64,000 nt of DNA from Reclinomonas americana ATCC 50394 (GCA_048213135.1 PS015014.1:60973-124972), one strand, 5' to 3'. Positions 10,835 to 45,694 are shown, numbered from the stretch's first letter. Notes: generated from the sequence alone by a model not told the origin. Made by a program: numbers and translations.

Positions 10835-10913
10835 GGCGTTGACGTGAGATCGTCGGAGAAAAAGGAGTGCGTGGTGCAGGACGCTGCGATCTAATGTTTG
10901 TTCGGTGCATTCT

Positions 10914-11228
10914 TCACCCATTGTTCTGCGCCTGCCACATGGAGGCGTAGATGCCATTCGGGTGTCGTAGCAGTTCGCTGTGAGTGCCACGCTCCGCAAT
11001 CGCACCATCCTTCAGCACTAGAATCTGCGACCGATTGGTGAGTGGCAAACATGACAGAAGTGGACGCTCGCTAGTGGGCAAGGAGATGTAGTGGTGGTGG
11101 TGGTGGTGGTAGTAGTAGTGGTGATGGTGGCGGTGGTGGTGGTGGGTGGCACGCAACTTGATCAGCACCGGCAATGGTGGCCAGACGATGCGCAATGACA
11201 ATACTGGTGGTGCCGGAGCGTCCGCTCG
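10914..11228 (-). pseudogene. Orphan duplicate of the last exon and part of the penultimate exon of the ABCB transporter at 14305-17674
   Basis: [17 protein letters not shown] / [36 protein letters not shown] is nearly identical to 14305-14600, and no upstream ABC exons are present. Confidence 0.8.
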
Positions 11229-11466: not shown

Positions 11467-14224
11467 TTACTGGAGACCACTGCACGGAGAGGTGTTCTGT
11501 GTGTGGGTGAGACATGCGAATGTGAGTGAGAGGGAAGTCGTCACGCGAAAAGCTCGTGTCAACAAACCTGAACTTGGACGGTGCCGGTGACTGTGACTTG
11601 CTTGGCCTGCACCAATGGTGTGGTCAATATCGCGTGTGTGGAGAGGAAGCGTGGCGACACAAAGTAAAAAGAACCCATGGCCACGAACCACAAATGTACA
11701 ACTTGGAGCACACCAGCCGGCACCGCCATCTGTGGCCTGCGATCCAGACACAGTCGAGTGCGACACGTTGATCGAGCCGTACTGGTCGCAGTAGAATGTG
11801 CCGCCGTGGCCACGTGAACCGCCGAGGGCGATTGCGCGGTTGTTGATGAAGACGCAGCTGTCAAATGCCGCATCTACATTGTCGCCGATGTACACGGCAC
11901 CGCCGTCGACATTGCTGCCGCCGTTAGAACTGAACCTGTGTGGATGGACATGGAGAGAGAGAAGAGAGAGTTAATGCGCAAGAGCACAGTGTTGTTGAGT
12001 GTTGCATCAATGGACGAACGTGGACTTGGTGACGACGATGCGGCCCTGTGGATTTGACGGACCATACGCCCAGAGAGCAGACGACGTGGTGTTGAAGAAC
12101 TGCAAGGTGAAAATAAGAAGTCAACGGAAAAGCCACGAAGATGAGAGGGTGCATGCAAGGCGATAAACGGTGCGTACCTGGGCGTTGTTCAGGTTGATGT
12201 AGAATCCGCTGTGGAAGCATGCGCGCATCATCCGTGAATATGGCAGCACGTCGCAAGGAGCACGCAAATTAAACACACAAAACTACTCACTTGTGCCGAG
12301 ACGCGACTGACACACCGTTGGAGAGATTTTCAAAGGTGAGACTGCATGCGCAGGGTCGACAGCATTAATGCGTGTGAGAACAATACGGGAGAAGGTGGAG
12401 ACAGGGAATGCACAGACGTGTCAGCTTGGAACTCCGAGTATCCGGCGGCCACTGACACACTTAAGCCAATGCGACCGCCGGTGAAGCTGCAGAGGACATA
12501 AAAGACAGAGATGTAAACAACTGGCACTTGTAAAACATCGCGAGTCCGAAGGCAACAGCGGAACTTCACTCGTGACGCCAGAATCGACGTTTTGGGTGGC
12601 GGGTTGACGCCTGTTTGCAATCAAGATACTCAGCACACCAGAGAGGGAGGGAGGGAGGGAGGAAAGAGGGTGGCAAAACGCGACTGTAAGGGAACTCAAT
12701 GGCTTTGCCATTGTTGACAAAGTTGACGTCGGTCAGAGTCAATGCGCAGCCATTGCCCACGGCCAGACCGGTGTCGTTGTTCCAGAAGGCGCACTTGTTG
12801 AAATTCACAGTGGTGGCAGTGGCAGTCACAGCACCGAAACCGCTGTTGAACGGGCTATCGTGGTGCACCAGAGAAAATAATCCCCAGTGAGAAGACGCAC
12901 ACGCGAAGCTTGACACGCAGCGCTTGAGGTACGCAACAAGTCCGCAAAGCCAACGCCGATAAACTTTTGCAAGGATGCAGAAGAGGGTGAACAAAAAATA
13001 GCACCACCATGGGCGACACGCACGCACGCAGTGGCCTCACCGACACATCCACAGATTGATCAAACGTGAAGCCGAGAATATCTGTGCGCAACAAGGAGAG
13101 TGGGCCAGCCAGTCACGACCACTATTGTTCCGAGTCGCCGCATCACGACACAGCGTACCAAACCGGCCCTGGCGCGGCGCATTGCACACAGTGAGGATGC
13201 AACGTCAGAGTGGCAACATACTCTCATCAACAGCTACGCAACCTGGCCCGAAAAGTACGCCTGACTCGGCGAATTCACTGCGTGTGTCTTGCAGTGAGTG
13301 AATGGACATGCATCGTCGCAAATGCCGGAAGATACGAACCCGATGAATCCGCGACAATGTTGACGGACTTGGAGATGCCTGTGTGCAGGCGCGTGTCACT
13401 CTCACTCACTCAACAGATGCGACACACGCACACACACACGCACACACACACGCAACGAGGGAAGTTGATGGAGCCCGTGTACACGCCCGGCAACACAAAC
13501 ACGGAGCCGCCTGGGTTCACTGACGCGATGCCCTTGCTGACAGTGAGGTACGGTGACGCGTATGTACCACTGCCAGTGGTGTCACTGCCAAAGGGGCCGA
13601 TCCTGTGCGTGTGCGTGTGTGACGTGTTACGTGTTGTCACATGATNNNNNNNNNNNNNNNNNNNNNNNNNNNNNNNNNNNNNNNNNNNNNNNNNNNNNNN
13701 NNNNNNNNNNNNNNNNNNNNNNNNNNNNNNNNNNNNNNNNNNNNNNNNNNNNNNNNNNNNNNNNNNNNNNNNNNNNNNNNNNNNNNNNNNNNNNNNNNNN
13801 NNNNNNNNNNNNNNNNNNNNNNNNNNNNNNNNNNNNNNNNNNNNNNNNNNNNNNNNNNNNNNNNNNNNNNNNNNNNNNNNNNNNNNNNNNNNNNNNNNNN
13901 NNNNNNNNNNNNNNNNNNNNNNNNNNNNNNNNNNNNNNNNNNNNNNNNNNNNNNNNNNNNNNNNNNNNNNNNNNNNNNNNNNNNNNNNNNNNNNNNNNNN
14001 NNNNNNNNNNNNNNNNNNNNNNNNNNNNNNNNNNNNNNNNNNNNNNNNNNNNNNNNNNNNNNNNNNNNNNNNNNNNNNNNNNNNNNNNNNNNNNNNNNNN
14101 NNNNNGGTGGTCAGTGCTACCACTGCGCAGTCACCAACCAGACAGTGTTGGTCGACTGAGCATGGACGACAGTGCATAGAAGTGCCAGTGCAACAGTGAC
14201 GACGACGGTGAGGCGCGGTGACAT
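11467..14224 (-). CDS. Secreted right-handed beta-helix protein, copy 2 (tandem paralog; gap in first intron)
   Basis: Same exon structure and motifs as 8446-10834; ends QNTSPCSGLQ*. Confidence 0.75.
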
Positions 14225-14304
14225 GGCGTTGACGTGAGATCGTCGGAGAAAAAGGAGGTGCGTGGTGCAGGACGCTGCGATCTAATGTTTGTTCGGTGCA
14301 TTCT

Positions 14305-17300
14305 TCACCCATTGTTCTGCGCCTGCCACATGGAGGCGTAGATGCCATTCGGATGCCGTAGCAGCTCGCTGTGAGTGCCACGCTCCGCAATCGAACCGTC
14401 CTTCAGCACAAGAATCTGCGACGGATTGGTGAGTGGCAAACATGACAGAAGTGGACGTTCGCTATTGTGTGGTGGTGGTGGTGGTGGTGATGGTGGTGGT
14501 GGTGGTGATGGTGGCGGTGGTGGTGGTGGGTGGCACGCAACTTGATCAGCACCGGCAATGGTGGCCAGACGATGCGCAATCACGATACTGGTGCGTCCGC
14601 TGGCCAGCGCAGCAATCGACTCTTGGATTTCGCGCTCCGTGGCAGTGTCCAGCGACGATGTGGCCTCTGCAGTAATGGTGAACGAGGGGGGCTACGGATG
14701 GAGAGCGGCAGCACGAGGAAGCACGAGTCGCAAACCGTCGAACAGCACTACGCGACTGTCCTTCAGGAAGCACCTCGCAATGCCGATGCGTTGTTTCTCT
14801 GCTCATACATTCACAACAGTCAGGCATGACGACGGTGAGAACCTCAACGCCCCCCACACACTCTCGCACCACCGCCGGAGAGGCGGAGTCCACGTTCGCC
14901 CACCAGCATCTGATATCCCTCCTCTAGTCGATCCACAAAGTCATGAACGTGCGCCAACTTGGCGGCACGTATCACCTGCACCAAAACAGCACACTCTCAG
15001 CTTACAGGATTGCAGTGGCAACCCATATGTACTGGTTGCCAACCTCGTCGTGTGTGGCTCCCACACGTCCGTACGCTCTGCGCGCATCACACTGCTCTCA
15101 CACCGAGCACAGAAACTGCAATCGCGTACAACAGCAACACTCACATGTTGTACTCGACACTGTCGTGCAGCAGCGAGGTATCCTGCGGCACGATACCAAG
15201 CTGCCTTCGCAGTGAGTGCTGAGTGACGGACCGCACGTCTTGTCCATCGATCATGATTGCTCCACCGTCCACCTAATTGTGCAGCGTGAACTCGCTGCTC
15301 CGTGTCTCCATGGATGCACACAACGCAACATCAAAGTGCCGGAATAGTAGCTTGCCGATGGTGCTCTTGCCGGCTCCAGAAGGCCTGCACGTAAGCATGC
15401 ATCGGTCATACCCGCACTGCAATCACATTCTTTCTAGCAGCATACCCGACAATGGCCGTCTGCTTGCCGGCCTCGCACACAAAGGAAACGTTGCGGAGAA
15501 CGGCAGGCCCATGAGCATATTGGAAACTAGCGGAAAATCACCACGTGAGAACGGGAACACTCGATGTAGACTTTTCAATCTCATCACACCTGACATTGGC
15601 GAATTCTACTCGACCCTTCTCGACCTGGAGACACGTCGCGTCACTCGCATCGACAATGTCACACGGCTGCACGGCACACAGTGCCACTCTCGGTGAGTGC
15701 TTGCCTCTGCGCGACCTCACTCGCTGAAGCAGCTCACCGTATCCTGCAGCGCAAACATTGGTTCCATGTCGGTGAGCGCATCCTTTGTCATCCTGTGTGC
15801 GTGTTTGCGCATATCATGAGCGACAGACACCCTTTGCAATCAGACATGCTATCGCAACTGATACGAATTTGCCAGCTCGCCGAGTGGTGCAAACACCAGC
15901 TTCAAGTACGTTTCACACAGCACCAAATCGCCGACACTGAAAGAGCCTGCGGCAATCCATGCGTGAGTACCACCGCACATGCCACGACACAGTGTATGCA
16001 TGGTATGGCATCCACCTTCGAAAACTCGCCGCGCGGCCACCAGCAACACAATGACCTGCACGACTCATCAACATGCTGGTCAGTGCATCATCAGTCCACT
16101 GCATCGAAGAGAACACGCACATTGCCGAGACCAACGATAAATGCTGCGCGTGGTTCCGCGAAAGCAAATCAGCAAAACATCAACTCCCTGGAATTCCTAT
16201 CGAGCAGGCGCAACTCTGTGTCAGCGCCAACGGTGCGGAGCTCGCCGTGGCCACCACACTGCCGTGAGCAAACTGCTTCATGGCCTCTGCGTATCGCTCC
16301 TCCTCAACACTGAGAGAGAAAGAGTGAGAGAGAGATGACCACGCAAGGCATCGCTCCACCACGAACCGCTCATTGGCCATGTATTTGACTGTCTCGATCT
16401 GCATGAGAGGCAGGCAAGTGAGAGTGACGTCAGAAGAGGAGCAGATCTCGTGTCAGACGCGAACATTGAGCAGGCCGTCCATGGCGAGAGCCACAGCATT
16501 CGCCGCGTGACCGTCGCGGTACCGTCGAAACTGTCACTGCGCACTCAGCCTGCGCGCGCTCAGACACACAGTGACACGCACACATCGCAAACCTTGGAGC
16601 GCCACTCCGATATCAGCAGCGTGGCGCCAATGTATGCCACGCTGCTAGCCAGAATCACCAGAAAGATGAGCCAGTCGTACTGTGTGCGCACATCAACACC
16701 CTCCAGTCAGCCACATGCGGTGACGCATTCCCCCGACAACACGAAACAAACCGTGGTCAACACCACACCACAGCAGGCGACGATTTCCAGCAGCGTCGGC
16801 AGCGTGCGCAAAAAGGCATGATCGAATACCGTACTCATGCCCGCCGTACCTGCGGCAGTCGACGGCATGGTAAGCAAGACCAATGACCTGCCAGCAGGCC
16901 CGCCAACCCACCTGTTTCCATGGCTCGCAAAGTCTGACGAGACGCGAGTGAGTGCATGGCACACCTTCGAGCATGCGGCTCGCACGCAACTTGAGCCGTC
17001 TTGCGGTGAACGTGAAAGGCCAACGAGAGCGACTGGATGTGTGCCAGTGTGGACACCGACGCCGTCGTGATCCCATGCATTTGCACCTGCAGCGTCAAGG
17101 CAAGTCAGCACTCTTCTGCGTCGCGTACGCAACCCGCGCACAGTACCACGCAGCATTGATGAACAGCGAGTTGCGCAGATCAGTCAGCGCCTGTCGCACA
17201 AACTGACCGACGGCGACATACACGATCAGCATCGTCGTGCGCTCCCTCAGTGACGACGACTCGTCGCCAAGAACGACGGCCTGTGGCAACGGTGCAGCAG

Positions 17301-17674
17301 TCGCCCCAGAAAGTAGGTCGACCACAGACTTGAGGGCTAGCGGCGTCAGCACCGACACCAACTTGGCGAGCAGCGTGCAAATGACCGCCAAGACAAGTCT
17401 GATCAGCATCATCATTATCGTTATCCTGCTTGGCCTCTCTCTCTCCCTCTCAATGTGTGTGAAGGGCGCCACTTAATGCGCAACTGACATCGAATCCACC
17501 AGTGATCGCGTGGCCACAGATACGCAAGCACACGAAGCAGGCTGGGAATGAATCGGTACGGCTGAACAGAGGTGTGTGAGCGAAGACTCCCCCACTCTGC
17601 AACGAGGCATACACACACACTCTCAGTGCCTTTAATGCCGCTCTGCCGACGCCGGCACCGTCAGTTGGCGCCAT
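14305..17674 (-). CDS. ABCB half-transporter (ATM1/HMT1/ABCB6-like), paralog B
   Basis: TMD ([22 protein letters not shown]); Walker [10 protein letters not shown]; signature [38 protein letters not shown]. Confidence 0.88.
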
Positions 17675-17782
17675 GCGACGAGAAATAAAAACGCGACAAA
17701 TCCGTGGGACAACTTCGCTGTGCACCCCTTCTCACCACCCTTCCCTCCCTTGTTGGCGAACATAAAAGTGTCTACTACATTC

Positions 17783-20700
17783 TTAGTTGTCTGCGGATAG
17801 CGACGACTGGCTGGCACTATGGACCGACGCCTCGTCCGTCTGCGTCTGCTTCCGCCACATTTCCGAGTACAACCCATCCTCCAACTGCAGTAACTCATTG
17901 TGCGTGCCACACTCGGCGATTCGCCCGTCCTTCAGCACCAGGATCTATGCGTGCGCCACTCAGTACCACAAACCGCGACAAGTCACCTCTCTCACGCTGC
18001 AGCAAGCGCACGCGACAAACCTTGTGGGCGTTCGCAATCGTGGCCAGTCGATGAGCGATCACGATGGAGGTTCGACCGCGGGCCAGTGCCGTCATCGAGC
18101 CCTGGATGGCCAGCTCGGTGGCGGAATCCAGCGATGAGGTGGCCTCTGTGTACAACGTAAGCAAGAGAGCACGCGAATTGTGGGAGGGTGTCATCGGCGG
18201 ACGACACTGACCGTCGAACACCATGATGGGACTATCCTTCAGGAAGCACCGCGCGAGCGCAACGCGTTGCTTCTCGCCACCAGAGAGACGGAGACCACGC
18301 TCACCGACCTTGGTTTCATACTTTTCCGACAGGCCTAATGTACACACGTGTGAGGCAAGCGAGGCAACAACGACACAGCGTGTAAGCATTCACCATCAAT
18401 GAAATCGTGAATCGCCGCCTGCTGCGCCACATACTCGACCTCCTCGTCTGTGGCATCGCGCTACGAGAGGGCGAGTAGTAGTGAGGAAATGTGGCATTGG
18501 GAGAACTGCATACAACTATGGACGAGAGAACCTTGGCGTACGAGATGTTGTACTTGATCGTGTCGTTGAACAACACTGTACAGAGAGCATGCAATGAGCG
18601 CGCATTCAAGTGGAGCGAACGAGGCAGTGCGACGACGCACCAGTATCCTGTGGAACCATGCCGATGCTTTCACGCACTGATGCCTGCGTGCACAGCGCAA
18701 TGTCTTGCCCGTCGATGAGGATGCGACCGCCGAGGACGTCGTACAGGCGGAAGAGTAGTTTCGAGATACTGCGAGGTAGGAGTCAGCTCATCCACGAACG
18801 TCCAACGAAGGAAGATCATGCGCCACGCGACGCAACGTGCTCTTTCCGGCTCCCGATGAGCCGACAATGGCCACCGTTTGGCCGGGCTCACACGAGAATG
18901 TCACATCGTAAAGAATCGGTCGCCCATCGGAATACATGAAAGTGACGTGATCGAACTCGACTCGGCCCTCCGTGACGTGCAGCGGTTGGGCGCCAATGAC
19001 GTCGGTCACCGTGCGTGGCTGTGCCGCGCACACAAGAACAGAGGAGGAGGCCAGCGAGTGAGTCGATATGTGCGGGACGGAGTGAGTGCTCCAAGAAAGA
19101 CTGACCTCGTCCAGCAAGTCGATCATGTCTTCCAGATCTGCGGTAGCAGTACGTTTTCGTAAGGAGGGGAACATGCATGATGCAGGGTCGACAAGATTAC
19201 CAATCAAGCTGTTCTTGGTCATGCGGTACGTCGTGCCGAGGAAGTTGAGTGGCTGCACACCAAACAGTGAGTCAGTGCGGCAATCCAAGCACACGCCAGT
19301 GCGCAAGCAACTCACCGAATACAGTTGTGCCAAATATGCTGCAAATCAACAACAAGAGTTGGCTGACGTGCTGAAGAACCAATCGAGAACAAGGAGAACG
19401 CAACTCTGAACCAGCACCACGTCGCCGACCGATTGCTCGCCTGCGCCGTGATAAGGAAACAACAGAGGTGCACAACTCTTCGACACCACCAACGAACCGT
19501 AGACCACACGATACGCCGACAGCATGACAATCGACACTGTTCCCACACCCATGATGAGTGCCTGCGTGACGTTGAGGAAGGCCAGCGAGCTCGTGCTGCG
19601 CGAATTCGCGACGCCGTACTCCTCCATCGCCTTGTCATACCGGCCAACTTCAGCACTGCATTGGAGAGAGAGCATCAGTTTCACAGTCCCTGTCACCGCC
19701 TCCACCACAGTGACGCACGCTTCCTGCGAAAAGATCTTGACCGTCTCTGCGAGAGCGCTATCCTTTAGCATCGACAGCGGAAAAACGCACGAATCACGAT
19801 TGTACACGCACCATAGTTGAGCAGCGAGTCCGTAGCGATTTGATTCGCCTGCATATACGCACATGAGAATGACGATACCGGTCACCTTGAAAGCAGTGGA
19901 CGGCTTACCCGGTTGTTGGCGTCATTCAGCGATCTGCAGCAGAGGGGGCGGTCATGCTAGATGCACAGTAACGACAGAGACAAGGAGATGAAACGAACCG
20001 TCGGAATTTGGTTCTCCAGTCGGTGAGGGCCGTCTGGCGGTAGAGTACAGTGAGACGAGAGTGGGTTCACTTCATCTTCACAACACATACGCAACTGTGG
20101 CCCAGGCGTACGAAGAAATAGTGACAATGACAATAATCGCAAAGATCCAGTCGTACCGCGTCAATAGCACAATGCACACCAACAAGATCTCCAGCACCTG
20201 CACACGAGAGGCCATGCAGGTGAGAAGAAAGTGAGCAAGGCAGAATTCGGTAGGAGAGCGCACCAAGGGAACAATCGAGAACAACAGGAAGCTGAAGATT
20301 ACTCTGCAGAGGGATGTAAGCACGGCAGTGACTCTCCGCACACGAGAGAACACAAACGCACGCACCCAATGGCCGACGTGCCACGATCCATGCTTCTCAG
20401 CACTGCAGAAAGAACATGAAAGCAAAAGAAATGAGCGAGGTGTTGAAGACGGTGGCCCATTGGATTTCGTGTGCAAGACCTTGGCCAGTTTTTCTGTGCG
20501 ATCAAAGAGTCAGTGAGAGACATTACGCTGCGAGCCACGCATGGCATCACTCGAAATCACGCACCGCTTCACGTGAAACGACACGGACAGCGATTGCAAG
20601 TGGCTGAAGGTTCGCGTCGATGCCGTGCGAAGAGCGTTTGTCGATACCTGCACAACGCAGTCAGCACAGCGCGCCAACAGGGACTGGCAAAGGTACAAGC

Positions 20701-21799
20701 ACACAACTGCCACAAAGACACTGTCGCGCAGGTTGGAGAATGCATCGATGCTGAAACGCCCAATGCCCATGAACAGAACGGCCCACAGCGGGAACGTTGG
20801 CGGCTCCTCCGACAGGCTGTCGATGACGGCCTTGTAGGCGAACGGAGTGAGGATGCTCGTCACTTTCGAACCGATCAGGCACATGAACGAGATGACGACT
20901 CTGTGATGAACACACACGATATGAGCCCAATATCACGAGTTTTCAGCGGCGGTCAGCTGCTGACCGAAGGCGCAAACCCCAGCGCCCCGCCGGCCACATG
21001 AGCGGCAGCAGGGATTTGATGTAGTACCAGTGCGAGTGCTTCCTCTGCAGACGCGCGTACACGTCAGTTGTGAGCGACAACAAAAAAAACGCGCGCGCAG
21101 CTCATGTGCACATGAAGAAAGCACCTTTTTCTTCTCCTCTTCCGCGGGCTTCTTGCCGGAAGGCGACTTGGCCGCCGTCGGTGTACCCGCCGCCGTGCTG
21201 GCCACCTCCACGTCGCCTAGAGTGGACGCCGAGGCACCGGCACGAGCCGGGCGCACCTGCACCACCGCCGACTGTGATCGCGGCAATGCATCCGACGCCG
21301 GCGGCAGCGGAATGTTTCGGAACGACGACCCGCGCGGCGCCACCGGCAGCATAGCGCGCGCCTGGTCGTGCGACCAGTGCCGCGAGTGACCCCCACGTCC
21401 GCGTGCCGCTCGCGTGTGCATGGTCGCCACTGGATCACGTGCAAGCGCCGCCGGCACTGCATCGTCATCACCGCCATCATCTGCTGGCCCCGTCGCCGCC
21501 ACATCCCCCTGCTCCACAGTGCGCCGCACGGCCAGGTCGCTTGCTCGCGTGACCCACGAAGGCTGTCGCAGAGGGCCCGCCGGTGGCCCACTGGCGGCCG
21601 CGGGCACCATCAGTGGCGGAGGTCGTGCACCACGTCCCGCCACATTCGGAAAGGTTGGTGGCAGCCTCATGTGTGGTGCTTGCGGCACAGCCAGTGCACC
21701 AGGGCGAGGCACCGGTACTGCACGCAGTGGTGGTGACGACGAGGGCGGCGGCAGTGCATTCTGTGCGTCCTCGTCGAGACGTGCATAGCGCTCGCTCAT
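17783..21799 (-). CDS. ABCB half-transporter (ATM1/HMT1/ABCB6-like), paralog A, with long Pro/Ala-rich N-terminal extension
   Basis: [106 protein letters not shown]. The start codon is the least certain part. Confidence 0.9.
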
Positions 21800-36400: not shown

Positions 36401-39400
36401 CAGTCGCTGGTGACAGCGATTCGGATGCCGATTCGCCTCTGGAGCTGACGACGGCGCTTGGTGTGAAGACGATGCAACTGCTCCTCAAATCGCCCAACCT
36501 GCACTTGCCGCTGTCGGTGAGAGTCCCGTTCCGCGATTCGTCGCGCTAGCCTCGCAGCGTCTCACATTATGTGTACGCAATAGCTGCTGGAGAAGCTGTT
36601 GGAGACGCTGCCGCGGTCAGACAGTGTGGTGGCAGCGCGGTGGATGCGTGTGGCCATTCAGATGTTCAATCGGTGGAGCGAGTTCGACCACGAGTCGTTG
36701 ACATCGCGAGCGCACAAGGAGCGCATCCTGGAGGTGAGCTGCTGCACACCCACAGCTGCATTGTCGGCTGTCTCCACTTGGTATCGCTGAATCGTGAGTG
36801 CAGCTTCTGGAGACCATTCCCAAGAATCTCGTGGAGGAGGTGCAAGGCGAGGGCTCAGTGAGCATCATGATGCCGAACGAGGACAGCATCACATGCCGTG
36901 GCGTCGAACCCATTGTGGTCGCGTCAGCCATGGAGACAGTGCTGGTAAGTTTGCGAGTGAGAGCGAGACCACGGAGATGCTTCGTCGTCATGTGCTCACG
37001 TTCTGTAGATTGGAATGCGCACTGTTCGACTGGACGAGTCGGGTGTGGGACGTGATATTCCGGTGCCAGACTTTTTGTCGGCCAAGCGTGGCGACTTTGT
37101 GGTGTTGGACGATCCGTTTGATGAAGCCAACGGACCGGGCCGCCCTGTTCCTGGTGGCTTTGGTGCCCAGCCGGCGTTTGGTGGTGGTTTCGGCGGTGGC
37201 GGCGGCGGCTTTGGCGCGTCCTCATTCTCGTTCGGCTCGACAGCTCCCGCATATGGCTTTGGTGCCGCTGCAGGTGGCTTTGGTGGCTTTGGAGGCGCGT
37301 CGAGCTTTGGTGGCGCCGTCAGCAGCTCGAGCGCCAGTGGATCGTCTCGTCGACCCACCGTGGAAGATGAAGATGACGATGTTCCGCTTCCCGAGGACGA
37401 CGACGACGCGCCCTTCTTTGGCCCGGAACTGCCAACGGCCGCCGATTCCGCGCAGTCGCCCACCGGGGGTGCGGGTGCTGCAGCCGCCGGCGCCTCTGCC
37501 AGTGGTTCCAGCGGAAGCGGCGCTGCAGATGCAGCAAAGACCACAATGTCGAGCTTCACGCCTGAGCAACTGAAAAGTGCGTGCACGTGTGGGGTGGGTG
37601 AATAGCGTGTGACAAAGCGAGTCATGCTAACATTGTGTGCGCCTTGTGCAGTCCTGGCGGATCATCGCAAGGGCAAGGCTCTCAGCGCACTCGTTACGCT
37701 CTGGCCGTCGCAAAAGCGCGCACAGTTCACCAAGGACAACAAGGTACGATTGGCGAACACGTTGCATGCATGCATCATATGTGTTCTTAGCCAACCCTGT
37801 GTGCGTTTCTTTGCAGTTCTGGTTGATGAACACGTACGAGAACACCCTGGCTATCACCGACACAGTTGTCAGTTGCGCCACCACTCCTGCACCGATTTGT
37901 TCCCTTGCGTGTGTGGTGTGTGCACTCACTGCGCATTTTCTCGACAGATGGTGGCAAGTGGTACTTTGAGTGCGAGGTCAAGCTCGGCCAAAACACCAAC
38001 GTCTTCATCGGCGTTGTCCGCTCCAATTTCACGTTTGTGGTGCGTTCGTTGATCATGTGCGATGCAGTGACGGTATTTCGAGTCTTGCAAGCTTCCCTCA
38101 CTCTCTGTCTGCTTGACAGAATGGCGTGCAACTGGGCTGCGACAACGCCGGCGCCTCCTGGGCCATGGCGATTCCGGGCAACCAGCTGCGCCACGGCAAT
38201 GTGCTCACCAGCAGCTTTGCCTACGATTGGTCTGTGTTGTTGGTTACTTGCTTTGGGGATTCAGTGCCCGACGCACTNNNNNNNNNNNNNNNNNNNNNNN
38301 NNNNNNNNNNNNNNNNNNNNNNNNNNNNNNNNNNNNNNNNNNNNNNNNNNNNNNNNNNNNNNNNNNNNNNNNNNNNNNNNNNNNNNNNNNNNNNNNNNNN
38401 NNNNNNNNNNNNNNNNNNNNNNNNNNNNNNNNNNNNNNNNNNNNNNNNNNNNNNNNNNNNNNNNNNNNNNNNNNNNNNNNNNNNNNNNNNNNNNNNNNNN
38501 NNNNNNNNNNNNNNNNNNNNNNNNNNNNNNNNNNNNNNNNNNNNNNNNNNNNNNNNNNNNNNNNNNNNNNNNNNNNNNNNNNNNNNNNNNNNNNNNNNNN
38601 NNNNNNNNNNNNNNNNNNNNNNNNNNNNNNNNNNNNNNNNNNNNNNNNNNNNNNNNNNNNNNNNNNNNNNNNNNNNNNNNNNNNNNNNNNNNNNNNNNNN
38701 NNNNNNNNNNNNNNNNNNNNNNNNNNNNNNNNNNNNNNNNNNNNNNNNNNNNNNNNNNNNNNNNNNNNNNNNNNNNNNNNNNNNNNNNNNNNNNNNNNNN
38801 NNNNNNNNNNNNNNNNNNNNNNNNNNNNNNNNNNNNNNNNNNNNNNNNNNNNNNNNNNNNNNNNNNNNNNNNNNNNNNNNNNNNNNNNNNNNNNNNNNNN
38901 NNNNNNNNNNNNNNNNNNNNNNNNNNNNNNNNNNNNNNNNNNNNNNNNNNNNNNNNNNNNNNNNNNNNNNNNNNNNNNNNNNNNNNNNNNNNNNNNNNNN
39001 NNNNNNNNNNNNNNNNNNNNNNNNNNNNNNNNNNNNNNNNNNNNNNNNNNNNNNNNNNNNNNNNNNNNNNNNNNNNNNNNNNNNNNNNNNNNNNNNNNNN
39101 NNNNNNNNNNNNGACCTTGTTCTGGTGCAGGTACAAGCAAGAGAGCACCGTGGTCGGCTTTGTCCTCGACTGCGAGAAGAAGACTCTCAAGTTCTCGTTG
39201 AATGGCTCATTTGCCGACGGTGCCACGATCGAAGAACTGGATTCGAAGAAGGGTTTCCATGTCGCCATCTCCGGCAACGGAACCACATCGTGCCAATTCA
39301 ACTTTGGACGACAGCCGTTCAAGTTGCGCACACGCTCACACAACTCGTTCACTGCGTGTCTCTTTCCCATATCTTACTTGCCCGCGCGCGCGCGCGCGCC

Positions 39401-42400
39401 ACAGGTTCGCCATCCCACGCGGCTGCCTGCCACTGGAGAGCGAGCACCTGTCTCGTTGCGTCCNNNNNNNNNNNNNNNNNNNNGCGGTAAACGCTCATGC
39501 ATGTGCGTTGCCTCTCTCACGCGCAGCGGCGTGCTACAGAGGTGCGAACCTGGGTCGACGATGTCATGTCGTGCTACGAGACTCTGTTGGCGGCGCAAAG
39601 CGGCGAGGCGATTTCCGAGGCGTTCATGGACCGCTGTCTCGAGGGCGAAGGCTTGCCGACCGGTGCGTGTGTGCAATGTCTGTGAGACCAGACGCGTGGC
39701 GGACTTGAGTTGACTGATGATGGTCGCAGAGACCACACTCGCCTTGGAGGTTTTGTCGTGCGATGTGCCGACACGTCCGGGCGACAACATGAGTCTGTCG
39801 ACCCTCACGGAGAACGATGGTGTGGCGTACACGTTCCGCAAGGGTCGCAATGTGCACGTCTCGTTCCGCATGGACGAGGACCAGGACTTTTTGCTGACCA
39901 AGATCCGAGTGTCCCCCGGGTATGTTGCTAGCTGTTCAGCGTGCGTTTTGTTTTGTTCACTCGGACTTACCACTGATTGGTACAGTGCGTTCGGCTCCAA
40001 CCTGAGTGGCATGGTGTTTGTCACGGACGGTTTGTGTCGAATGTTGTTGTCATTTGTCGTACTCACCAACTGAATGCGCTTTCTTTATTCCGCTGCAGAG
40101 AAACCGCAATTCGACTCGCTGAGCTGGTGCGATGACTACGAGGAGGAGCGTTTCAAGAGTGCGTGGTGCTCTCTCTTCTTGGTCAAGTAGAGCCTTGCAC
40201 GCCGTGTGCTCATCTGCGGTACAGAGTTCGCCGAGCGTAAGCGCGGCCTTGGCCAGGAGTGGCGCCCTCACGAACCGGTGGCGTACTTTATGTGCAACTC
40301 TGGAGCTGCGCCGACCACCAATGTGGCCGAGGTGCGACGCGGTCGCTACGTGACTATCAGTTGCGGATGCTGTCGCACGAGTTGTGCGAGTCTCTCTGCA
40401 TTCTGACCTGCAATCCACACAGAGTTCATCCAGTCGTCGACTCCGCACGAGATCTCTGTGACGTTTGTGGAATTCACCGGCGTGCCTGGCGTCCATCCGG
40501 TGAGTGTGCACTCATTTTTTTCGCGCCACTGCACTGCATTATCTGCTCATCGCATTGTTTTTTTGCAGTTGGCGCATCTGTACGGACAGCCGTCACTGGC
40601 CACCGAAGCGGACCGACTGCGTCTTGAGCTGAAACGCAACATGGTGTTCGACACCAGTTGGACCAGCGAGCATGACCGCGAATTGGTGGAACTGGTTTGT
40701 GGAGACTGGAAGAGGCGCACTCGTGCGGTGATGGTGGTTAACATTCGACATGCTCATTGCGTCGACAGAGTCAAGTGTGCAGCAAGCGGTGGGGTATCAA
40801 GCCGTCGTCGGTCGACGTGTTCATGTTGAAGCCGACTGCCGAGGATCTGATGCGTTTCTACGCGCTGCGGGTGCGCTCGTTGATGTTCACGTGGTAGTGG
40901 GTGTGTTTTTGCATAACGAATGCTGGCGTGCTGTGCGCAGCGAGTCACCAAAGTGGAGACACTTCGTGCACGCCTCGCCATCATCAAGATGCTGAATCGC
41001 GCCGTCGTTCCGCTGCTGCGCTATTGCACGCTGTTGCCCGATGCGGTGACAGAAGAGGGATCGCTCAGCGCTCGCATCTTTGAGGTCAAGGAGGCGCTGT
41101 ACTTGCACAACAAGACGGCGTTCTGGAATGCCGTGCTGTCGCAGACCACGGAGCGCAACGGTGGTGGTGGCCTGTTCGCTTCGCGCGTGTCCATCAATCG
41201 TGTGAAGGCCACGCTGGCTCGCACTGGTTGGTGGTGTGTCAGTGCGTGCCGTGAAAGACTGTCTCATTTGCTGATCGCACGTGCAATGCAGAGCCTGCCA
41301 AGGATCCGGATGGCGCCAAGTCTATCTTTGGACAGTTGTACGCCTCTGTGCACCTGATGGCCCCGCGCCAGCTGCGACACAATCGCCAGTTGTGGAATGT
41401 GGAGTTTGTCGGGTGCGGTGTTGGTCCTCTCACTTCTTCTCCATGTATTCGACTGTTCCTCACCCCTGCCATTCCACGCTCGCAGCGAGGGGTCCATCGA
41501 TGCTGGGTTCGTTGTTTTTCTCACTCTTGTGCTGTTGCTGCAAGCTTTGCTTGATCCTCATGGCTGTTGCGTATTGCCTGACACATTACTCAGTGGACCT
41601 TACCGTGAGGTATGTCATCACGTGCAAGTGTTGTGGGACGGGGGCTAACAATTGACTTGTCGTTTCACAGTCGATTACGCTGGCTTGTGCCGATCTCATG
41701 TCGTCGGCCACCCCGCTGTTTATCAAATCGCCCAACGGTCGTCACGGGCTCGGCATCAACCGGTGAGTCGCGTGGAGAGGGAGAAAGAGAGGAGGAGGAG
41801 GAGATGATGATGATGACCAAGATCAAGGAGGGCAAGAGAAGGAGGAGTAAGAGGAAGAGAAGAAGGTATTATTTGTGTGCTGACGTGCATGCGCCGCAGT
41901 GAGAAATTCATTCCGAATCCGAGTGCGACGTCGTCGTTGCACCTCGACATGTATCGTGTCGTCGGCATGCTGATGGGAGTGTCGCTCCGTTCACGCTTCC
42001 CGCTTGCGTTCGACTTGCCTTCCATTGTGTGGAAGCGACTGGTACGGGCGTGACTGCAATTCGTGGGTGCGTCTCTCACATCCANNNNNNNNNNNNNNNN
42101 NNNNNNNNNNNNNNNNNNNNNNNNNNNNNNNNNNNNNNNNNNNNNNNNNNNNNNNNNNNNNNNNNNNNNNNNNNNNNNNNNNNNNNNNNNNNNNNNNNNN
42201 NNNNNNNNNNNNNNNNNNNNNNNNNNNNNNNNNNNNNNNNNNNNNNNNNNNNNNNNNNNNNNNNNNNNNNNNNNNNNNNNNNNNNNNNNNNNNNNNNNNN
42301 NNNNNNNNNNNNNNNNNNNNNNNNNNNNNNNNNNNNNNNNNNNNNNNNNNNNNNNNNNNNNNNNNNNNNNNNNNNNNNNNNNNNNNNNNNNNNNNNNNNN

Positions 42401-45400
42401 NNNNNNNNNNNNNNNNNNNNNNNNNNNNNNNNNNNNNNNNNNNNNNNNNNNNNNNNNNNNNNNNNNNNNNNNNNNNNNNNNNNNNNNNNNNNNNNNNNNN
42501 NNNNNNNNNNNNNNNNNNNNNNNNNNNNNNNNNNNNNNNNNNNNNNNNNNNNNNNNNNNNNNNNNNNNNNNNNNNNNNNNNNNNNNNNNNNNNNNNNNNN
42601 NNNNNNNNNNNNNNNNNNNNNNNNNNNNNNNNNNNNNNNNNNNNNNNNNNNNNNNNNNNNNNNNNNNNNNNNNNNNNNNNNNNNNNNNNNNNNNNNNNNN
42701 NNNNNNNNNNNNNNNNNNNNNNNNNNNNNNNNNNNNNNNNNNNNNNNNNNNNNNNNNNNNNNNNNNNNNNNNNNNNNNNNNNNNNNNNNNNNNNNNNNNN
42801 NNNNNNNNNNNNNNNNNNNNNNNNNNNNNNNNNNNNNNNNNNNNNNNNNNNNNNNNNNNNNNNNNNNNNNNNNNNNNNNNNNNNNNNNNNNNNNNNNNNN
42901 NNNNCACACACACACTCTATCCACACTTTCTCTTTCACAGTCTTTCTCTCTCTCTCTCTCTCTCGCTGTCATCTCATTCTTGTTTGGTCACTGATACTCT
43001 CGCTCCCCGAAGCATCCTCGGTCTCAGTTGCACACAAGCATACATGCACATACACACTCCCTTTCGTATCTCTCTCTCTCTTTCTCTGTCCCTCCCCCTC
43101 CCTCTCTGTTCTCCCTCCTCTCTCTCTCTCTTACCTGCACTTGCGGGGACGACGCCGAGTAACCCGAGTACTTGGTGTGGCGCTACACAGTCCACTGATA
43201 AGTGACGCGATTAAACACACGCATGTACAGCTACTCGTAATCACACACCTTAAGCGTCGCCACGTCAATGTCGGGCTTGCCACACTGCGGGAGACAGTGA
43301 GTATCAAAATGCAACCCGCCTCGCCTTTAAATGCACGCGCGACACACACGCAACGACGAGCAGCTCCAGCTCGGACCACGAGAAGAGCGACAGCACGCTG
43401 ATGGGAACCACCGACGCCAAACCGTTGCGCATGGCCTTCAATTGCGTCACGCTCTCGTCCAAACGCGTCTGCATCACGAGCTCGACAAACTCGTCGCGTG
43501 TGTCAAACCTGTGCCAGTGTTAACACACGAACATATGCGCGCACATACACACCACAGACGACGCAACGTCACAGGAATGTCCTTGCCGCCCGGCTTCAGT
43601 TCCTTCTCCGTTCCATCACTGCAAAAGCAAAGCAAGATGTGAGTAACACACACACACAACACAAGTTGCGCTGTGCTCTCGCCACACGGCGCACCTGAGC
43701 TGCGTCGAGAATGTCTCGAGGAACACGTCCTACGGCGGCGGTCACACCGTGAGCAGAGTACGCAAAAGTCGCACGGCGATACGCACGTTGCACGCACCTG
43801 GAATACATCACGACCAATCTTCTTCACTTCGTCGAGAGCCTGCACGCAAAGCTTGTCGACAGCTTCCAGATCGGACGGATCGACTGGCAGCGACAGCTGC
43901 GTCACGTGTGAGNNNNNNNNNNNNNNNNNNNNAGAGAGAGAGAGAGGCACAGATCATTTCGGCACGGAGACAGGTCAGGCTGATAGAGGAACTGTTGCAT
44001 ACGCTCCTGCTAATCGCGTGAGCGTGCAGTACTTGTGGCGTGCACTGCAGTCCTTCACCGCCGAGGAGCGCCAGCTGTTCCTTCGTTGCGTCATTTGTGT
44101 TCTGTTCGTGCGTGATACGTTGTTGCTAACAGTGCAGTGCGTGCATCTGCAGGCTTTGTTGCGTTGTAACCAGGAGTACATTATTTCCTCTAAAGAATGG
44201 TCTGACCTCACGAGAATTGTGTGCTGCAGGTGTGGGGTCGCAATCGCCTGCCGCCGAACGACGATTCTGTTGCGTTCCAAGTCGTGCACTTATCGACTGT
44301 GTGTATCTTCTCACTCTGCTCACGACAACTTGTTGGCAGTGTTGCGAACTCTTTGGCAGTGAATATCATGCGGTCTCTGCGCGTGTTGCTCACGCACATT
44401 ATGCAGGGGACTGTCCATTCACCATCAACCGGTTCGGAGGACACGCCAGTGACGAGACTCTACCGGTGAGACTCCCCTTCTCTGTTTGTGTGAGTTTGCT
44501 TGCTTGTGCACAAAGTGCTCACTGTGTTTCTCGTTGCGAATCAGGTGGCCCACACATGCGTTGCGTTCATTTTTTCTGTTTCGCATTGCTCCTTTCGTGG
44601 TTCGGGGACTTACCGTCTCTCCGCCTCTCCTTCCTGCGACACGCACGAGTAGTGTGAGTCAGATGTGCTTGCCGTCTTATGTATTTGTCTCATTGTGCTC
44701 ACGTGTGTTTTTTCGCACAGTGTTGCGTCTTGTCGAGTAGTGCGGTGTTCTTGTGCAGTGAGAGACTGACATCCCGTTTGTGTTTCCGCGGCTCGCTTTT
44801 CGGTGCCTCCATAGCGTTGCGTTTGTTCAGCCCATGCGTGCAATTGTTGTACCTGACAGACTTGGCTGACTCTTTTTTCATACGCACAGTGTTGCGTTGC
44901 GCCACTCTGCGTTTGCATGGCAGGTGTTGTACTCACTGGTTGTTTATTTACATCGCTCGTGCTCGCTCGCTCTTCGCACATGCAGTGTTGCGTCTCTCGT
45001 AATCTGCTTTCTAACTGCCTCGATTGTGTGTCACTCACTTGGTCGTTTCTTGCATGTCCTGCAGCTCGGTTCGGCTGTATTTTGCTGTCTTTGTGCATGC
45101 TGAATATCTGTTGTGATTTTGAGTGCTCACCTGTGCCACCTGCAATTCGCCCGGTTCGATGTGCACAGCTCGGTGAGTGCAGTGTTCTTTTTGAGTCACA
45201 AGATGGTGATTCTGATGCGTTTNNNNNNNNNNNNNNNNNNNNNNNNNCTTGGTGGGGGAACGTGCAGACTTGCCGGAGTACACGTCGCAAGATGTGCTGC
45301 GCGAGCGCATCCTGTTTGGTGTGTGTTCTTGATGTGCAACGTTGTTGTATTTCAAATGCCTTGCTGAAGTTGTTGTTTTTCCAGCCATTGTCAATTGCCA

Positions 45401-45694
45401 GGCTATCGATACCGACTTCAATCCGGAGAGGTGATTAGTGTTGTGAAGTGTGTGTTTAACTGTGACTTGGCTAACTCTGTTTGTAATACACAGCTCTGCG
45501 TGCGTCGCATCGTGTCACGCACATCTTCTGCGGTGATTGCTTGTTCCTCACATTTTTTTGTTGTTGAATGTTGCTGTACACAGCTGGTATGTTATCGTCC
45601 AAGAGGGTTGGGAAAAGGTGTAAGGTTGGCAATGGTGAGTGTGTGTGACGGTTCTTCTCGTGTGTGCAGGTTGGATGCCGGTGTCGAGGAGTGA
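22812..45694 (+). CDS. Giant HECT-domain E3 ubiquitin ligase (HERC/HECTD4-like C-terminus) with LamG/ConA-like, UBA-like, FG-repeat and SPRY regions; very many exons
   Basis: Start MGQSLS; LamG-like FTVEMWIR..WTHVA..FNGNMAELRIW (~25720-26760); UBA-like YPREYAMKALEKCGYD; SPRY GKWYFECEV; HECT VEFVGEGSIDAGGPYRE..LPSIVWKRL..LFLRFVWGRNRLP..LPVAHTCFFSLDLPEY..AIDTD; stop at 45694. The single-gene extent is inferred from continuous same-strand exons across gaps. Confidence 0.85.
30346..30410. repeat. (GT)n microsatellite, intronic (CA/GT and GA/CT tracts are common in introns of this window)
   Basis: Uninterrupted gt run visible in sequence. Confidence 0.95.
35210..35428 (+). repeat. Coding tandem repeat (GQPGGF-like, about 18-nt units) within the HECT ligase
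   Basis: AFAQPGGFGQQPGGFGQPGGFGQPGGFGQPGAGFGQPGLFGQPAGFGQPALFAQPAAPFGQPAFGQPAGFGGG. Confidence 0.9.
43135..43896 (-). CDS. Internal HECT-domain exons lying in reverse orientation within gap-bounded contig 42905-43912
   Basis: LSLPVDPSDLEAVDKL..FSTQLSDGTEKELKPGGKDIPVT..WSELELLVCGKPDIDV..YSASSPQVQ joins exactly between plus-strand ..VWKRL and YLWRALQSF.. Confidence 0.9.
44560..45267 (+). other. Micro-exon chain: 1-nt exons at 44653, 44721, 44815, 44890, 44986; 4-nt exons at 45065-45068 and 45169-45172
   Basis: Each is flanked by YAG and GT; concatenated T+T+C+T+T+CTCG+CTCG+AC = TTC TTC TCG CTC GAC (FFSLD). Confidence 0.88.

Follow-up and report, generated by a model that had tools for sequence, protein, structure and literature searches.

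Can a gene depend, for the reading frame of one of its most conserved domains, on exons of five nucleotides and of a single nucleotide? This is the question raised by a putative HECT ubiquitin ligase gene of Reclinomonas americana ATCC 50394, which lies on a stretch of 64,000 nucleotides (GCA_048213135.1 PS015014.1:60973-124972; the whole stretch is hereafter called the window) of a draft scaffold of this intron-rich eukaryote, with about 57% G+C. The original prediction, made from the DNA alone, had placed a 5-nt exon, GCTTT (44153-44157), and a 1-nt exon, T (44340), in the region coding for the C-lobe of the HECT domain (positions are those of the window, on the plus strand unless stated otherwise). 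On the basis of splice signals, spliced alignment and comparison with relatives, we consider it probable that both are real, constitutive ultra-short exons.

How is the site built? A coding exon (44030-44084), encoding YLWRALQSFTAEERQLFL plus the C of an Arg codon, ends in ...CTT C and is followed by a 68-nt intron (44085-44152) with a GTTGCGT donor and a TGCTAAC motif, the A of which lies 23 nt 5' of the CAG acceptor. Then come GCTTT, that is, the last two bases of the CGC codon for Arg and the TTT codon for Phe, and a 72-nt intron (44158-44229) with a GTTGCGT donor and the motifs CTGAC/CTCAC located 24/19 nt 5' of its CAG. The next coding exon (44230-44268, VWGRNRLPPNDDS) ends in ...GAT TCT and is followed by a 71-nt intron (44269-44339; donor GTTGCGT, TGCTCAC 17 nt 5' of the CAG), after which the lone T at 44340, in the context cag-T-gttgcg, represents the first base of a TGG Trp codon. 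A 66-nt intron (44341-44406; donor GTTGCGA, TGCTCAC 14 nt 5' of the CAG) separates this T from the exon 44407-44465, which begins GG GAC TGT and supplies the GG of Trp and DCPFTINRFGGHASDETLP; a 79-nt intron (44466-44544; donor GTGAGA) then leads to a 15-nt exon (44545-44559) encoding VAHTC, the catalytic Cys motif. Once joined, the pieces within 44030-44465 are translated into YLWRALQSFTAEERQLFLRFVWGRNRLPPNDDSWDCPFTINRFGGHASDETLP and, with the VAHTC exon added, into YLWRALQSFTAEERQLFLRFVWGRNRLPPNDDSWDCPFTINRFGGHASDETLPVAHTC; the mRNA as modelled would read ...CTT CGC TTT GTG TGG... and ...GAT TCT TGG GAC.... Both microexons are directly bounded by an AG acceptor and a GT donor, as are the ultra-short exons of the APC11 type. 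The coordinates that had been proposed for them proved correct, as did the statements that cag-GCTTT-gttgcgt completes the R-F of LFLRFVWGR, that cag-T-gttgcg supplies the first base of TGG and that no N gap lies nearby (zero N within 44030-44465).

Both microexons are required for the reading frame and for conserved residues. Indeed, without the T the exon beginning at 44407 is translated out of frame, as originally claimed, and if GCTTT is left out the frame runs into a stop. If both are left out (6 nt), the downstream frame is recovered, but 44230-44268 is misread in the wrong frame. The frame does not, by itself, prove the microexons, since this double omission, 26 single-intron paths and an alternative donor at 44090 (see below) also keep it; thus, the case rests on conservation and on splice signals.

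What do the relatives of this gene carry at the same positions? A HMMER search with a 51-aa HECT exon of the gene (43355-43507, minus strand) against 1.84 billion representatives gave 232 matches at E ≤ 0.001, of which the best 150 were examined; among the matches listed, none exceeded 60% identity. The 49 of those 150 possessing a complete C-lobe (an LPx[AS]xTC motif and at least 25 residues after it) were used to build a profile, from which the window sequence was left out. The microexon model aligns to this profile without gaps and scores 74.3 bits, a value that drops to 45.3 without the T, to 39.5 without both microexons and to 17.4 without GCTTT. By column counts, the residues completed by GCTTT are R in 40 and F in 48 of the 49 relatives, and the column of the T-GG codon is aromatic in 38 of them (F 25, W 13).

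The same picture was obtained from metagenome contigs, which were scanned with an alignment of nine relatives and yielded 203 related stretches, 80 of which were kept. In 62 of these 80 loci, a single tblastn alignment with the modelled protein runs without interruption through all the critical positions, with R in 58 and K in 4 at the first residue, F in 62/62 at the second, and, at the T-GG codon, W (25), F (16), K (9), R (7), L (2), Q (2) or Y (1). The closest loci among the matches listed (61-66% identity) read ...FLRFVWGR(N/S)RLPxxxxDW..., all of them with D-W. Plain, uninterrupted DNA of the relatives therefore encodes what the R. americana genome would assemble from microexons, and the central reading of the original prediction (five nucleotides that complete R-F, and a single one as the first base of TGG) is at once the best-scoring path against the profile and the one that matches this DNA. 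The remaining 18 loci belong to more distant genes, HECTD3-like and interrupted by ordinary introns. Two exons of this gene, used as queries in a word-indexed search of proteins of at most 2000 residues, gave no match at E ≤ 0.001. As a separate observation, two metagenome gene predictions depart from the family consensus right after HTC (P0140) or HTCFFSI (P0033), and these breaks look like mis-predicted read-through of introns at or near the intron positions of the window.

The second line of evidence concerns the splice signals. The four introns flanking the microexons are 66-72 nt long and have GTTGCG donors, CAG acceptors and a CTNAY motif with its A 14-26 nt 5' of the acceptor; each is complete on its own, with donor, acceptor, viable length and a branch site predicted by motif match. 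As control introns we used the 30 obtained by a spliced alignment of two ABC half-transporter genes on the minus strand, guided by a protein (P0237) retrieved in a word-indexed search with an ABC exon that returned mostly bacterial ABC proteins. Among these 30 introns, 25 measure 57-87 nt (median 66 nt), with exons of 25-226 nt, and 5 use GTTGCG as donor; the merged single-intron alternatives at the microexon site (138-145 nt) are atypical in length. In the whole window GTTGCG is found 120 times vs 68 expected. Outside the C-lobe it occurs in 61 sense and 15 antisense positions, and GTTGCGT in 38 and 2, respectively (sense and antisense as given by our own reading of the genes), which makes GTTGCGT the most specific donor word of this genome. 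GTTGCG is the donor in 9 of 14 C-lobe introns vs 7 of 40 elsewhere (Fisher p = 0.002), and in 6 of 9 cases after an exon of at most 5 nt (p = 0.007). The donor word has some further peculiarities: a G directly before it is rare (5/61), and GTTGCGT departs from the usual consensus for pairing with U1. Scanning of the 64-kb window against Rfam and for tRNAs gave 0 matches, so no snRNA in the window explains this donor, and a literature search on GTTGCG/GUUGCG as an intron or splice site word returned nothing relevant.

How often would such an arrangement occur by chance? The pattern CAGNGTTGCG has 6 matches in the window vs 1.58 expected, a number reached in 0/100 shuffles, and 4 of the 6 fall on the plus strand inside 44337-44992. 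The other two lie on the minus strand, at 19399 and 16209; the former was rejected as a microexon, being the ordinary exon end (...GTT CAG A-GTTGCG) of an ABC gene. We also shuffled the two intervals with the outer donor and acceptor fixed, considering GT..AG paths with introns of at least 50 nt. A path supplying T appeared in 19/500 shuffles (4/500 under stricter donor/YAG rules) and one supplying G-N-T-T-Y in 2/500 (0/500 under stricter rules), while the real intervals hold exactly one such path each; AG-T-GT is single in 44269-44406 because that interval has one valid path. A scan of the whole window for the same grammar gave 12 microexon-like sites, 6 of them in this C-lobe. One more site that fits the grammar, tag-CTGTTCAG-C-gtgcgt (39932-39940), lies upstream in the same gene region.

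Can the microexons be recovered by a procedure that does not look for them? We used a spliced aligner (profile-to-genome Viterbi) in which any GT..AG of at least 35 nt may be an intron, codons may be split across exons and frameshifts are allowed. The introns 44269-44339 and 44341-44406, with T between them, were recovered in 6 of 7 runs, the seventh ending earlier; the 5-nt exon was recovered in 2 of 7, both with site-aware scoring (donor hexamer ratios and an acceptor matrix) at a penalty of -6 or -8. Site-aware runs at -10 and -12, as well as runs with flat penalties of -6 and -10, returned the 1-nt exon with the predicted introns together with the path through the donor at 44090, and the flat penalty of -15 led to an early stop.

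These and other results include several points that weigh against the microexons. Around the T, 26 stop-free in-frame single-intron paths exist between 44230 and 44465, the best of which scores 64.4 bits, and retention of the intron 44341-44406 (T + 66 nt + GG) would introduce neither a stop nor a shift of frame. The 5-nt exon can be bypassed in frame by splicing from a donor GTCATT at 44090 to the acceptor at 44229, giving RCVWG at a cost of just 4.6 bits of profile score (69.8 vs 74.4), and the aligner chose this path in 5 of 7 runs, that is, with a heavy per-intron charge or with the sites unscored. Among donors scored by a position weight matrix from 26 ABC introns, those with GTTGCG did not rank highly, owing to the fact that the donors of this genome are a mixture of types, and the sense/antisense hexamer ratios took the place of this non-discriminating donor/acceptor matrix. 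No microexon cluster was seen in the relatives examined (the closest about 65% identical), the 18 intron-bearing loci not having been modelled in depth. The scaffold is of draft quality: there are 17 N gaps, and one contig within the gene itself is inverted. Lastly, the inclusion of the microexons in the mRNA is probable, but it is something that we infer from the DNA.

The path through the donor at 44090 deserves particular attention. According to this alternative, only the 1-nt exon would be real, the first exon would extend to 44089 and a single 140-nt intron would follow, yielding LFLRCVWGR. The original prediction had held that other donors or acceptors skipping the microexons and still keeping the frame would speak against it, and on paper such a route does exist, with one intron fewer. 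However, it puts a Cys in the place of the Phe kept in 48/49 relatives and in 62/62 related loci, it passes over the GTTGCGT at 44085 in favour of GTCATT (12 sense and 3 antisense occurrences), its intron length is atypical with respect to the control introns, and it leaves the internal TGCTAAC...CAG-GCTTT-GTTGCGT, a kind of path rarely met in the shuffled intervals, without explanation. We therefore regard it as quite improbable. Every other alternative scores at least 10 bits below the microexon model.

Might the assembly itself have created the appearance of microexons? The possibility that there is truly one intron per interval, with one or more bases lost or mis-joined in the draft, would be in line with the many N gaps and with the inverted contig within the gene. 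However, the interval is free of N, and an indel would not make a branch motif, a CAG, the exact base(s) needed and a GTTGCG, twice here and again downstream; an artefact of this kind appears extremely unlikely. As for the inverted contig, it spans 42905-43912 between two N gaps and carries, on the minus strand, the middle of the same HECT domain (exons of 99, 35, 51, 154, 36 and 36 nt); its inversion relative to the flanks is most likely a scaffolding error.

To which family does the gene belong? The 51-aa exon of the inverted contig matches the Pfam HECT domain (PF00632) with 36.1 bits, above the cut-off of 23.9, and the catalytic Cys is found in its LPxxHTC motif, read as LPVAHTC at 44460-44559. 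An SPRY-domain exon (39114-39329) lies upstream and is read as part of the same gene; a relative (P0025) carries SPRY and HECT together. When the closest homologue (P0097) was compared with solved structures, HECTD3 gave 224 bits and the next families about 130. By its predicted domains, then, the gene is an SPRY-HECT (HECTD3-like) ubiquitin ligase. The motif FLRFVxGRxRLP had been described as a conserved HERC-type HECT motif; the HERC-type label is imprecise and not supported, in that the FLRFVWGR subfamily is closest to HECTD3 among solved structures and an SPRY exon lies upstream. A HERC-type ligase was rejected on the same two grounds, RCC1 repeats not having been searched for.

A further question is whether the two microexons stand alone. 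Downstream of the VAHTC exon, a chain of YAG-N-GT sites offers five candidate 1-nt exons (T 44653, T 44721, C 44815, T 44890 and T 44986, with introns of 67-95 nt between them) and two candidate 4-nt exons (CTCG 45065-45068 and CTCG 45169-45172), which together would spell TTC TTC TCG CTC G(AC), that is, FFSLD, the family consensus between HTC and LPEY. They would be followed by the last two exons (LPEYTSQDVLRERILFAIVNCQAIDTDFNPER, stop TGA), namely 45268-45318, which begins AC TTG CCG GAG TAC, and 45385-45434. The relatives read HTC-F-F-x-L-(E/D)-LPxY, with a spacing fixed in 46/49; the same spacing of five residues (FFSLD) between HTC and LPxY in the window depends on this downstream microexon model. 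The YAG-N-GT sites were first put together into this model by eye, and the model was tested afterwards. The resulting C-lobe of 15 exons (55, 5, 39, 1, 59, 15, 1, 1, 1, 1, 1, 4, 4, 51 and 50 nt), has 14 introns in 288 coding nt, six of which cut two adjacent Phe codons into single bases. It aligns to the profile over 94 gap-free residues with 132.6 bits and stops where the relatives end. It contains the sole GT..AG path spelling TTYTTYNNNCTNG, and any such path was found in 1/500 shuffles (the intron with the N gap being replaced by filler); the CTNAY motif is in range in 11 of the 14 introns. The spliced aligner missed the downstream 1-nt run, since the gain from five residues is smaller than the penalty for seven additional introns. 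Because of an N gap (45223-45247), which sits inside the intron 45173-45267, the downstream part is less secure than the site of GCTTT and T 44340. On balance, we lean slightly towards the whole HECT C-lobe being spliced according to the 15-exon model. The exons in the rest of the HECT domain measure 16-166 nt, so that the cluster of tiny exons is local.

In principle, the locus might not be productively spliced as modelled: the copy could be silent or decaying, or most of its transcripts could lack the microexons or keep introns and then be degraded or give variant proteins, for instance through the skipping of both microexons, the retention of 44341-44406 or the use of a donor at 44303, by which 11 residues are added. 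The existence of several in-frame stop-free alternatives would be in agreement with this idea, as would the fact that the same architecture was not found in any close relative. Nevertheless, in the model each of the 14 C-lobe introns begins with GT and ends with a YAG acceptor, the reading frame obtained by joining the exons stays open as far as the stop at which the relatives end, with the gap-free score reported above, and the alternatives score lower, with the exception of the donor at 44090; moreover, a decaying copy would not hold nine exons of at most 5 nt in phase. We consider this scenario unlikely. The in-frame escape routes at 44269-44406 (retention of 44341-44406 and skipping of both microexons) might represent alternative isoforms or a coincidence.

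If both microexons are constitutive, how might they be spliced? Each of them would lie between two complete and independent GT-AG introns of a size normal for this genome (median 66 nt), and introns so short and uniform may be recognised by intron definition; recognition across the intron would mean that no exon body is needed. As no more than 1-5 nt separate an acceptor from the donor that follows it, neighbouring introns would not be engaged together and would thus be removed in turn. Either order could work, as the remaining intron would keep all its signals, and after the first removal the tiny exon would become part of an exon of normal size. The pairing of the outer donor with the outer acceptor would instead skip the microexon and shift the frame; the strong donors located 3' of the microexons probably guard against such an event, and the excess of GTTGCGT-type donors after microexons fits selection against skipping. 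Concerning the origin of introns one base apart, we can speculate that they were gained locally, beside existing splice sites. An origin by duplication or from introners was rejected: a pairwise comparison of 11 C-lobe introns, with donor and acceptor trimmed, gave a median z of 0.5 (top pair 5.2), so the introns share only their signals, and neither a recent duplication nor an introner family is their source.

Some known systems resemble this arrangement. In recursive (zero-nucleotide) splicing, AG/GT ratchet points of Drosophila and vertebrates subdivide very long introns and leave nothing in the mRNA. The likeness lies in an acceptor adjoining a regenerated donor and in stepwise removal; in this gene, in contrast, a coding base would be kept and the introns are about 70 nt long. 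A ratchet point was rejected as an explanation of the site, where one or five bases needed in the product stand between AG and GT. Stwintrons, the nested spliceosomal twin introns of fungi, and introner elements also generate unusually close or repeated introns, with ordered splicing or with bursts of intron gain. Here, however, each intron has its own full signals, none interrupts the splice site of another and no sequence is shared beyond the signals.

The closest parallels are the validated 1-nt exons of Arabidopsis APC11 (PMC4674806), plant VPS55 (PMC8831610) and Fusarium CYP621A (PMC12940212). The APC11 and VPS55 cases share with the present one a single base between an AG acceptor and a GT donor, an upstream branch point, the need of that base for the frame, its omission from annotation and a strong donor 3' of the exon, which in VPS55 is the conserved GTRAGT (PMC8831610). 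They differ in that each gene has one microexon, proven by RNA and reporter data, whereas this gene is known from its DNA and would have, within 288 coding nt, six candidate 1-nt exons, a run of five among them, as well as exons of 4, 4 and 5 nt; its donor word, GTTGCGT, is a different one, and its flanking introns are far shorter (66-100 nt). Guo and Liu proposed intron definition and the stepwise removal of both introns for APC11 (PMC4674806). The CYP621A exon was inferred, by the same logic followed here, from exon-phase incompatibility and a conserved motif via an intronless relative, the differences being a confirmation by SRA reads, a single microexon and a fungal host; that 2026 paper ranks its case as the second example of a nuclear 1-nt exon (PMC12940212). 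Adjacent microexons are also described in plants, e.g., 5 and 12 nt in a rice transcript (PMC8831610), and there too ultra-short coding exons are neighbours between ordinary introns; they are two in a row, though, and here seven consecutive exons of at most 4 nt are predicted. Literature searches on 1-nt or single-base exons, which covered texts with supplements outside their scope, returned plant, Fusarium and organellar cases only, and no consecutive 1-nt nuclear run.

As regards the rest of the window, the two ABC genes that supplied the control introns are tandem ATM1/HMT-like half-transporter genes (14200-20950, minus strand) with about 30 short introns, accompanied by a partial third match near 10900-11200. 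In this region one frameshift was flagged at 14311, and at least one modelled 'intron', of 177 nt (19429-19253), is really two introns plus a weakly conserved exon.

What would these exons mean for the biology of splicing in this lineage? Validated nuclear 1-nt exons are very few; single ones are known, and our literature searches yielded no cluster of such density with consecutive 1-nt exons. If the 15-exon model is true, no denser cluster of ultra-short exons would be known, consecutive 1-nt exons would have been met for the first time, and the spliceosome would be able to work with essentially no exon between introns. With six 1-nt exons, five of which follow one another, the gene would put splice-site recognition to an extreme test: it would offer no exon body for exon definition or exonic enhancers, and, with an acceptor and a donor one base apart, its splicing would have to be ordered. 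Standard gene finders and read mappers would not annotate such a gene correctly. It would also point to a lineage-specific insertion of introns one base from existing ones, e.g., by mis-registered reverse splicing or by repair at splice junctions, and would thus provide both a natural substrate for the study of splicing order and fidelity and a case of local intron accumulation.

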